From a virus (Duplodnaviria; Heunggongvirae; Uroviricota; Caudoviricetes), in IMG/VR virus record IMGVR_UViG_2660238126_000006: a stretch of DNA of 7,172 bases. One strand, 5' to 3'. Both the position numbers and the translations under genes were made by a program. This document shows, piece by piece, positions 6,451 to 6,983 of the stretch. Under the pieces are notes generated by a model. It was given only the letters and a program-made list of their open reading frames with translations, had not been told where the DNA came from and searched no databases. Position 1 is the first letter of the stretch. Each line of letters starts with the position of its first letter.

Positions 6451-6575
6451 TCGGCACCTGCAATTACTGCACATACGGTGAGAAACAAAATAGCAGATAA
6501 TTTATGTTTAACCTTTCCTTGTTGTCGTATATCAGGGATCACTGAAATATAATCAAGCAAACTTTGAATACTCAC
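6451..6575 (-). mobile_element. ISAs1-family (H-repeat-associated) transposase, N-terminal 41 codons only, GTG start
   Basis: (V/M)SIQSLLDYISVIPDIRQQGKVKHKLSAILFLTVCAVIAGA matches the conserved N-terminus of E. coli H-rpt/ISAs1 transposases as I recall it. AGGA lies ~6 nt upstream of the GTG. Truncated at the N's. Confidence 0.7.
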
Positions 6576-6646
6576 CTGGGTCCTTTTTTATCTTTTTAGT
6601 TATTCCAAAGGTTAAATTTTGATCACCTGTAGGCGTTAAAGCCAAG

Positions 6647-6678
6647 ATGAAAATCGTGATTTACATCACAATTTTCAT
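6647..6678. repeat. 32-bp imperfect palindrome: ATGAAAATCGTGAT-TTAC-ATCACAATTTTCAT (14-bp arms, one mismatch, 4-bp spacer)
   Basis: Read directly from the sequence. It lies between the AT-rich ORF stop (6756) and the H-rpt start (6575). No U-tract follows on either strand, so it does not look like a canonical intrinsic terminator. Confidence 0.8.
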
Positions 6679-6755
6679 GATCTTGCCCTGCCCCGTCCCT
6701 TGCTCTCATGTCTTTCTGTATGTATTTTATATTTTTCTCTTTCTGGTGTTGTTCA

Positions 6756-6983
6756 TTATGACCATTTACCAATCCAGTCAAAAACTTCATTTTTCAAATT
6801 GTTATCATAATAATCAACATCGTAATAGTCTCCATAATTAATTATTTTATAACTAGCCTTCTTGTTTTTATCACTAAAATACACCCGTTGTTTTTTAGCG
6901 CAGAACTCCATATTCTCCAGTTTACTAATGTTTTTTAATCGCACGCTATAAAGAATATCATTGAAAAAATTAAGATTTATATC
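6756..6983 (-). CDS. AT-rich ORF of unknown function, 5' end cut at the paaJ breakpoint; possible internal start at 6909-6911 (51 aa) with GGAG RBS
   Basis: Minus frame reads ...[75 protein letters not shown]. Codon usage is AT-rich and unlike the flanks. I could not recognise the product. Confidence 0.4.

Follow-up and report, generated by a model that had tools for sequence, protein, structure and literature searches.

Background

The closest described relatives of the DNA analysed here are found in the Rhs regions of Escherichia coli. In K-12 the gene order is rhsE (a pseudogene), ydcD, yncO (antisense), yncI (an H-repeat pseudogene) and ydcC (an H-repeat). In strain 120899 an RHS core is followed by ydcD, a hypothetical gene, two ISAs1 copies and yafV. 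ydcD overlaps the 3' end of the Rhs toxin gene by 17 nt (K-12 rhsE and our loci L001 and L015). The sequence of full-length YdcD matches PDB entry 8WJ5 (E=4e-87), which carries the title 'Double-wing domain of E. coli YdcD' and labels the protein 'uncharacterized'. We found no functional study of YdcD or of 8WJ5 in the literature.

The antisense gene and its surroundings have also been described. YncO is among the 'SPs detected in this study' in Table 1 of a 2018 publication on K-12 (PMC6001520), and ydcD-yncO has been given as an 'excludon' pair (PMC12288877). A genomic-SELEX peak for the regulator FlhDC is located between ydcD and ydcC (PMC9962212).

Two toxin-immunity systems serve as points of comparison for the native locus. 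BteO is a T6SS effector of Bacteroides fragilis that is toxic only when targeted to the periplasm; it binds the C-terminal domains of OmpA and has no enzymatic activity (PMC12541434). Its immunity protein is BtiO. The second is the Rhs1-CT/RhsI1 pair of Serratia marcescens (PDB 6XTD; PMC10539506), in which RhsI1 acts in the cytoplasm. Orphan immunity genes are known to occur downstream of Rhs loci (PMC10539506).

Results and discussion

The window (the whole stretch of DNA that was analysed, 7,172 nucleotides) contains an AT-rich block close to one end. GC content is 0.320 across 6452-6982 (531 bp), with 0.264 in the coding part (6756-6982) and 0.361 in the spacer. It is much higher in the flanks (0.653 for 6983-7172 and 0.588 for 5278-6447). 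An earlier, sequence-only reading had described low-GC DNA of about 400 bp at 6451-6983; the low GC content (32%) stands while the length must be corrected to 531 bp. That reading had also seen a minus-strand ORF rich in D, Y, N and K, some 180 bp of intergenic DNA and the N-terminus of an H-repeat protein, and all three are present where it had placed them. On the minus strand the layout is the 3' part of ydcD, a spacer of exactly 180 nt and the H-repeat ORF, which runs from 6575. The four residues make up 48% of the 75 encoded by the block, and the stop codon of the ORF is at 6756-6758.

A megablast analysis against 5,426 complete E. coli genomes matches 6452-6988 to ydcD-ISAs1 loci at 99-100% identity. 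The annotations under this match are ydcD, hypothetical protein/YncO and ISAs1 family transposase. Compared with the 160-aa YdcD of strain 120899, the window ORF covers residues 86-160 with zero differences, and the stretch also agrees with the E. coli YdcD sequence in common occurrence. Against the NCBIfam model NF050020 (YdcD family protein), for which the curated cutoff is 65 bits, the fragment reaches 95.1 bits (E=4e-27) and covers profile positions 87-164 of 164. Judged by these alignments, 6452-6982 reproduces part of the well-known Rhs accessory block of E. coli letter for letter, and we regard the assignment of the individual pieces (ydcD, yncO, H-repeat and paaJ) as practically certain. 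The ORF was previously taken for an unidentified accessory gene; it is YdcD, which has a gene name, a family model (NF050020) and a crystal structure (8WJ5). The block contains 47% of ydcD (the 3' part), yncO in antisense orientation, a palindromic hairpin and an H-repeat start of 41 codons. The coordinates of these features, and of the other pieces of the window, are given in Table 1.

Table 1. Features of the window, its constituent pieces and the two breakpoints that border the ydcD block
Feature	Position	Strand	Basis or remark
fadD	1-609
guaD	617-870
glnS, 89 nt	871-959		Between the guaD and prophage pieces; Ns at neither side
Lambdoid prophage replication/nin region	956-5142	-
bufB/DUF692 gene fragment (MNIO-family bufferin maturase), 133 nt	5144-5276
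Phage baseplate J/gp46/V block	5278-6447
H-repeat/baseplate-V breakpoint	6448..6451	.	Ns at 6448 and 6450 are two of the positions at which the parents differ
ydcD/H-repeat piece	6452-6982
Start of ISAs1-family (H-repeat) transposase, yncI/ISEc26 type, 41 codons	6452..6575	-	PF13808, E=1e-10
Spacer between ydcD and H-repeat ORF, 180 nt	6576..6755	-	All 39 full-length matches listed are co-linear with it, at 98.4% identity or more
Near-perfect palindrome, 14-bp stem, 4-nt loop	6647..6678	.	Inverted-repeat search; terminator-like match
yncO, complete, 61 codons, GTG start	6656..6841	+	K-12 b4745 annotated at the equivalent place
ydcD 3' part, codons 86-160 and stop codon	6756..6982	-	Translation equals residues 86-160 of WP_000939262 (P0001)
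paaJ/ydcD breakpoint	6983..6988	.	Parent-by-parent alignment; 5 of 6 bases agree
paaJ internal fragment (3-oxoadipyl-CoA thiolase), codons 270-332 and one base	6983..7172	-	100% over 190 nt

The H-repeat and the spacer

The GTG at 6575 opens VSIQSLLDYISVIPDIRQQGKVKHKLSAILFLTVCAVIAGA, which matches the Pfam domain DDE_Tnp_1_assoc. Annotations under the match are 'ISAs1 family transposase' or 'ISEc26'. The window shares with the known H-repeats (yncI, ydcC, ISEc26) the N-terminal 41 residues and the place after ydcD, as it occurs in 2,469 genomes. It differs from them in holding 124 nt only, with neither the DDE domain nor identified terminal repeats. After the 41 codons the H-repeat is cut off by a breakpoint, which has Ns at 6448 and 6450. 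This breakpoint (at 6451) comes before the DDE domain, and the piece does not therefore qualify as an ISAs1 transposase.

The IS has its left end somewhere inside the spacer. Self-BLAST of the K-12 and 120899 loci, an inverted-repeat search and a distant BLAST search for other copies did not locate it more precisely. Locus L001 contains no convincing pair of inverted repeats, and we found no second copy of this type of H-repeat with other flanks that would mark the IS end. H-repeats of the type present in the window are joined to ydcD in essentially every case; the neighbouring ISAs1 copies share only about 67% identity with them within the ORF.

yncO and the hairpin

The sequence-only reading had overlooked a complete gene on the plus strand, yncO. 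It overlaps the 3' end of ydcD by 86 nt in antisense orientation and agrees with K-12 b4745 in ORF, position and sequence. The product is hydrophobic and 60 of its 61 residues are identical to those of K-12 YncO, the one substitution being H56R.

The palindrome lies 78 nt 3' of the ydcD stop codon and spans the yncO start codon. As RNA it folds at -28.5 kcal/mol (z=-5.4), and an identical hairpin sequence underlies the FlhDC genomic-SELEX peak between ydcD and ydcC (PMC9962212). It could be a terminator-like element for ydcD, an occluder of yncO translation or a protein binding site. An Rfam scan of the whole window gave no match.

What remains of ydcD

The minus-strand ORF is not confined to the AT-rich island, as had been supposed: it reads in frame from paaJ codons and is open to the end of the window (6756-7172). 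Its first 63 codons are thiolase (Pfam Thiolase_C, E=2.1e-18). This thiolase piece had been considered as yqeF, an assignment which we rejected because BLAST gives paaJ. Strain GE3 and many others have an identical sequence in paaJ.

With residues 86-160 only, the window copy differs from YdcD of K-12 (b1457) and from 8WJ5 in having no codons 1-85, that is, neither the membrane anchor (helix 2-26), the first helix and strands nor Cys82. The downstream order of yncO, hairpin and H-repeat is as in the K-12 locus. In an AlphaFold2 model obtained from a 13-sequence alignment including distant relatives (a 9-sequence alignment gave a pLDDT of 40 and was discarded), the structural domain is predicted to occupy residues ~40-160, and the fragment would miss three beta strands. 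In a Foldseek search of the PDB the only significant match was to 8WJ5. Because the anchor, the first helix, three strands and Cys82 are missing, the 75-codon piece cannot be a functional YdcD, and no function is expected of this remnant in the window.

The 76-aa and 51-aa versions of the ORF singled out earlier are not genes in their own right and represent the C-terminal 47% of a 160-aa protein. That the AT-rich ORF should be a small, separate orphan or immunity-like gene, 51-76 aa in length and with its own start, we consider very improbable. The 51-aa version does begin at an internal Met (YdcD residue 110) with GGAG in front of it, and orphan immunity genes of the kind described downstream of Rhs loci (PMC10539506) would provide a precedent. 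Against this, the loci that we read have this DNA within an intact gene of 160 codons, and its 3' end is found together with the downstream block in 2,469 genomes. Homologues, even those at 23% identity, have lengths of 137-165 aa throughout and are conserved before residue 86 (FYG, RGNG and Cys82-Gly83). The predicted domain, too, would be left three beta strands short by such a gene.

The paaJ joint and the chimeric window

The window as a whole consists of eight unrelated E. coli pieces, each mapped to different parents, with seven breakpoints in 7.2 kb (607-616, 870/871, 955-959, 5143, 5271-5277, 6448-6451 and 6983-6988). All 12 non-ACGT characters are on or beside breakpoints (607-616, 5143, 5271, 5277, 6448 and 6450). 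Ns are found at or adjoining four of the seven; they sit where the parents disagree, though not at every such position. This placement resembles a consensus calculated over wrongly merged sequences. Two ORFs are artefacts of the same kind: 6366-6575 (minus strand, 69 aa) runs from the H-repeat start into reverse-strand baseplate DNA, and 6079-6474 (minus strand) is the baseplate-V gene with a false N-terminus containing X.

The prophage piece looks like an intact early region of lambdoid type and shares 98.7% identity with a prophage of strain STE15; it has genes for cII, O- and P-type replication proteins, a 96-aa hypothetical protein, NinB, an N6-adenine methyltransferase, NinE and NinX. The bufB gene is found in the complete-genome set only on plasmids of 59 genomes. 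Among the matches listed its carriers include ETEC strains, and strain 120899, which has the best-matching ydcD allele, is one of the carriers; this hints that the source strain may be similar to ETEC.

At the joint itself the bases are TGGGTG in paaJ and TGGTTG in ydcD. Eight unrelated pieces with Ns on most of their breakpoints make an assembly chimera the most likely origin of the joint, and in our judgement paaJ'-'ydcD is very probably an assembly or consensus artefact and not a gene. The alternative, that it is a real structural variant, is improbable. It could have arisen by a 68-kb deletion if the gene order were K-12-like, or as the new joint of a large tandem duplication or translocation if ydcD were near yafV, and would encode a PaaJ(1-332)-YdcD(86-160) fusion protein. 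The reading frame is kept across the joint (PaaJ ...A-L-G, then YdcD D86-I-N), which is free of N and shows a short microhomology such as illegitimate recombination leaves. In K-12, moreover, paaJ is upstream of ydcD on the same strand (coordinates from the DGF-298 table), which gives the simple topology of a 68-kb deletion. However, in none of the 5,426 complete E. coli genomes does a single place cover both sides of the joint, and the junction 31-mer was not found in metagenome contigs. The ydcD allele of the window belongs to the yafV-linked type (it is 100% identical to that of strain 120899 and 98.2% to that of K-12), and in strains of this type paaJ is more than 1 Mb distant. Six further breakpoints lie within the same 7.2 kb, and deletions cannot explain the window because they do not create inserts such as 89 nt of a tRNA synthetase gene (glnS) and 133 nt of a plasmid gene. 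The fusion protein would, in addition, have neither the thiolase C-terminal catalytic region nor the YdcD anchor. ORFs or gene arrangements that cross any of the seven breakpoints should consequently not be interpreted.

The genome-reduced strain DGF-298 was also considered as the origin of a paaJ-ydcD deletion joint, and was rejected because both genes are wholly gone from it in separate deletions. Other YdcD chimeras and frameshift variants are present in public protein sets. In one of these, P0036 (a JGI metagenome contig of 1512 bp), a CoaD-like N-terminus is fused to YdcD at residue 88. This is two residues from the window breakpoint at D86 and could be a coincidence or an AT-rich spot prone to assembler error.

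Native ydcD loci

The ydcD-to-H-repeat junction is present in 2,469 of the 5,426 complete E. coli genomes (~45%) and the block is nearly always intact, 2,442 genomes covering at least 80% of the query. Here the arrangement proposed earlier, an immunity-like gene downstream of an Rhs core and in front of an H-repeat, is borne out: it is that of rhsE-ydcD-yncO-yncI-ydcC in K-12 and of RHS-ydcD-ISAs1 in strain 120899. The concern that the AT-rich frame might prove to be a housekeeping protein, or to lack conservation, did not materialise, since the protein is not a housekeeping one and the frame is conserved in thousands of genomes. In the native loci ydcD occupies the position of an Rhs immunity gene, with its 17-nt overlap with the Rhs tip upstream. 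In the window, by contrast, a paaJ fragment stands upstream, and the rhs, cdiA or O-antigen gene that had been suggested there is not found.

The YdcD family is narrow but genuine. HMMER, run exhaustively over 1.84 billion representatives, yielded 36 matches, about ten of which are proteins of 137-165 aa with 23-34% identity. Features found family-wide are an N-terminal hydrophobic helix, FYG, RGNG, Cys82-Gly83, Phe91-Phe92, Cys113, Asp145 and a C-terminal W-x-x-x-W-S. Cys113 is invariant, Cys82 is nearly so, and every member ends in W..W-S. A search for related loci with the single YdcD protein yielded nothing beyond close copies from E. coli/Shigella and MAG contigs that are contaminants.

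Beyond the PIQVIDPMGL core boundary, the tip of RhsE is Pfam DUF6973 (3496-3936 in our locus L002). A DUF6973 ORF lies directly upstream, with an overlap of 8-17 nt, in five of the eight family members examined: K-12 ydcD, the 120899 copy and relatives at 59%, 28% and 23% identity, the last of which sits in an Rhs/IS110/ankyrin region. No recognisable DUF6973 neighbour was found for the relatives P0051, P0053 and P0056. A 167-aa protein upstream of P0053 was considered as a relative of RhsE-CT and dropped, as it has no similarity.

Two of the loci deserve mention. In L019 one of these three relatives, a YdcD-like gene (6001-6498, 27% identity), stands alone between truD and eptB/surE, with a sulfatase/EptB-like neighbour and no toxin nearby, in a region of housekeeping genes (ispDF-truD-surE-pcm-nlpD-rpoS); it may be an orphan immunity gene. 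In L015, downstream of the ydcD homologue with 59% identity, an orphan DUF4329 toxin-like ORF and a 100-aa ORF replace the H-repeat (1003-1949). This is a typical array of displaced Rhs tips and their immunity genes.

A possible role for YdcD

A profile made from four DUF6973 sequences (the RhsE tip and the domains of L015, L020 and L021) matches BteO (PDB 9UU0) remotely but significantly, with E=3.9e-5. The RhsE tip aligns with BteO over ~85 residues, with motifs GG..A.RH...IG..HE...DL.NN.G. We found no mention of DUF6973 in the literature searched. Both partner proteins, BtiO and, as predicted, YdcD, are exported or envelope-anchored. There are also differences: YdcD has no detectable sequence similarity to BtiO, and RhsE-CT is delivered by the Rhs cage whereas BteO is a small stand-alone effector. 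From the Serratia marcescens pair the system differs in that YdcD has no sequence similarity to RhsI1, and in that RhsI1 is cytoplasmic whereas YdcD would be anchored with its domain predicted to face the periplasm.

The pairing of DUF6973 with YdcD, together with the remote homology to BteO, supports, short of proof, a reading of YdcD as an immunity protein that is anchored in the membrane and located in the periplasm. The N-terminal anchor would sit in the inner membrane and hold a double-wing domain with a disulfide on the periplasmic side; there this domain would bind, sequester and block a DUF6973 toxin acting in that compartment. The parts of this proposal differ in strength. Gene position and pairing suggest that YdcD is probably an immunity protein. 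That the DUF6973 toxin acts in the periplasm like BteO is conceivable by analogy, and we hold it with less than even confidence. The complete picture is more tentative still: YdcD as the anchored periplasmic immunity partner of a DUF6973 Rhs toxin which would be an enterobacterial BteO homologue and would kill non-enzymatically, through binding to peptidoglycan-anchoring domains of the OmpA/Pal type.

An unlikely alternative is that YdcD has no immunity function and is an unrelated envelope protein hitch-hiking in the Rhs region, for example as H-repeat cargo or as a phage-exclusion factor. This would account for the distant relative that stands alone between truD and eptB/surE, for two others that have no recognisable toxin neighbour, and for the state of the K-12 locus, in which RhsE is a pseudogene and ydcD is intact. 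Against it stand a DUF6973 pairing that is kept over 23-59% identity and in different loci, and overlaps of 17 nt or 8 nt with the toxin ORF, which are typical of toxin-immunity coupling; lone copies have a parallel in the known orphan immunity genes (PMC10539506). Taking the window and the native locus together, the best explanation, in which we have high confidence, is a remnant of the ydcD block in a chimeric window, with native YdcD most likely the cognate immunity protein.

Meaning of the locus

The segment is ordinary: ydcD, yncO, the hairpin, the H-repeat and paaJ are all already annotated in K-12 and in thousands of genomes. Its sole unusual feature, the paaJ/ydcD joint, is best explained as an artefact. 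The practical value of the window is as a warning, since it strings together pieces of genome, prophage and plasmid as a chimera, and it carries little biological weight. The DUF6973-YdcD pairing and the link to BteO provide a cheap, testable hypothesis for ydcD and rhsE, which concerns the parent locus and not the window. If true, the BteO-like reading would give a function to a crystallised K-12 protein labelled 'uncharacterized' and to the RhsE tip, and the remnant in the window would still be inert.
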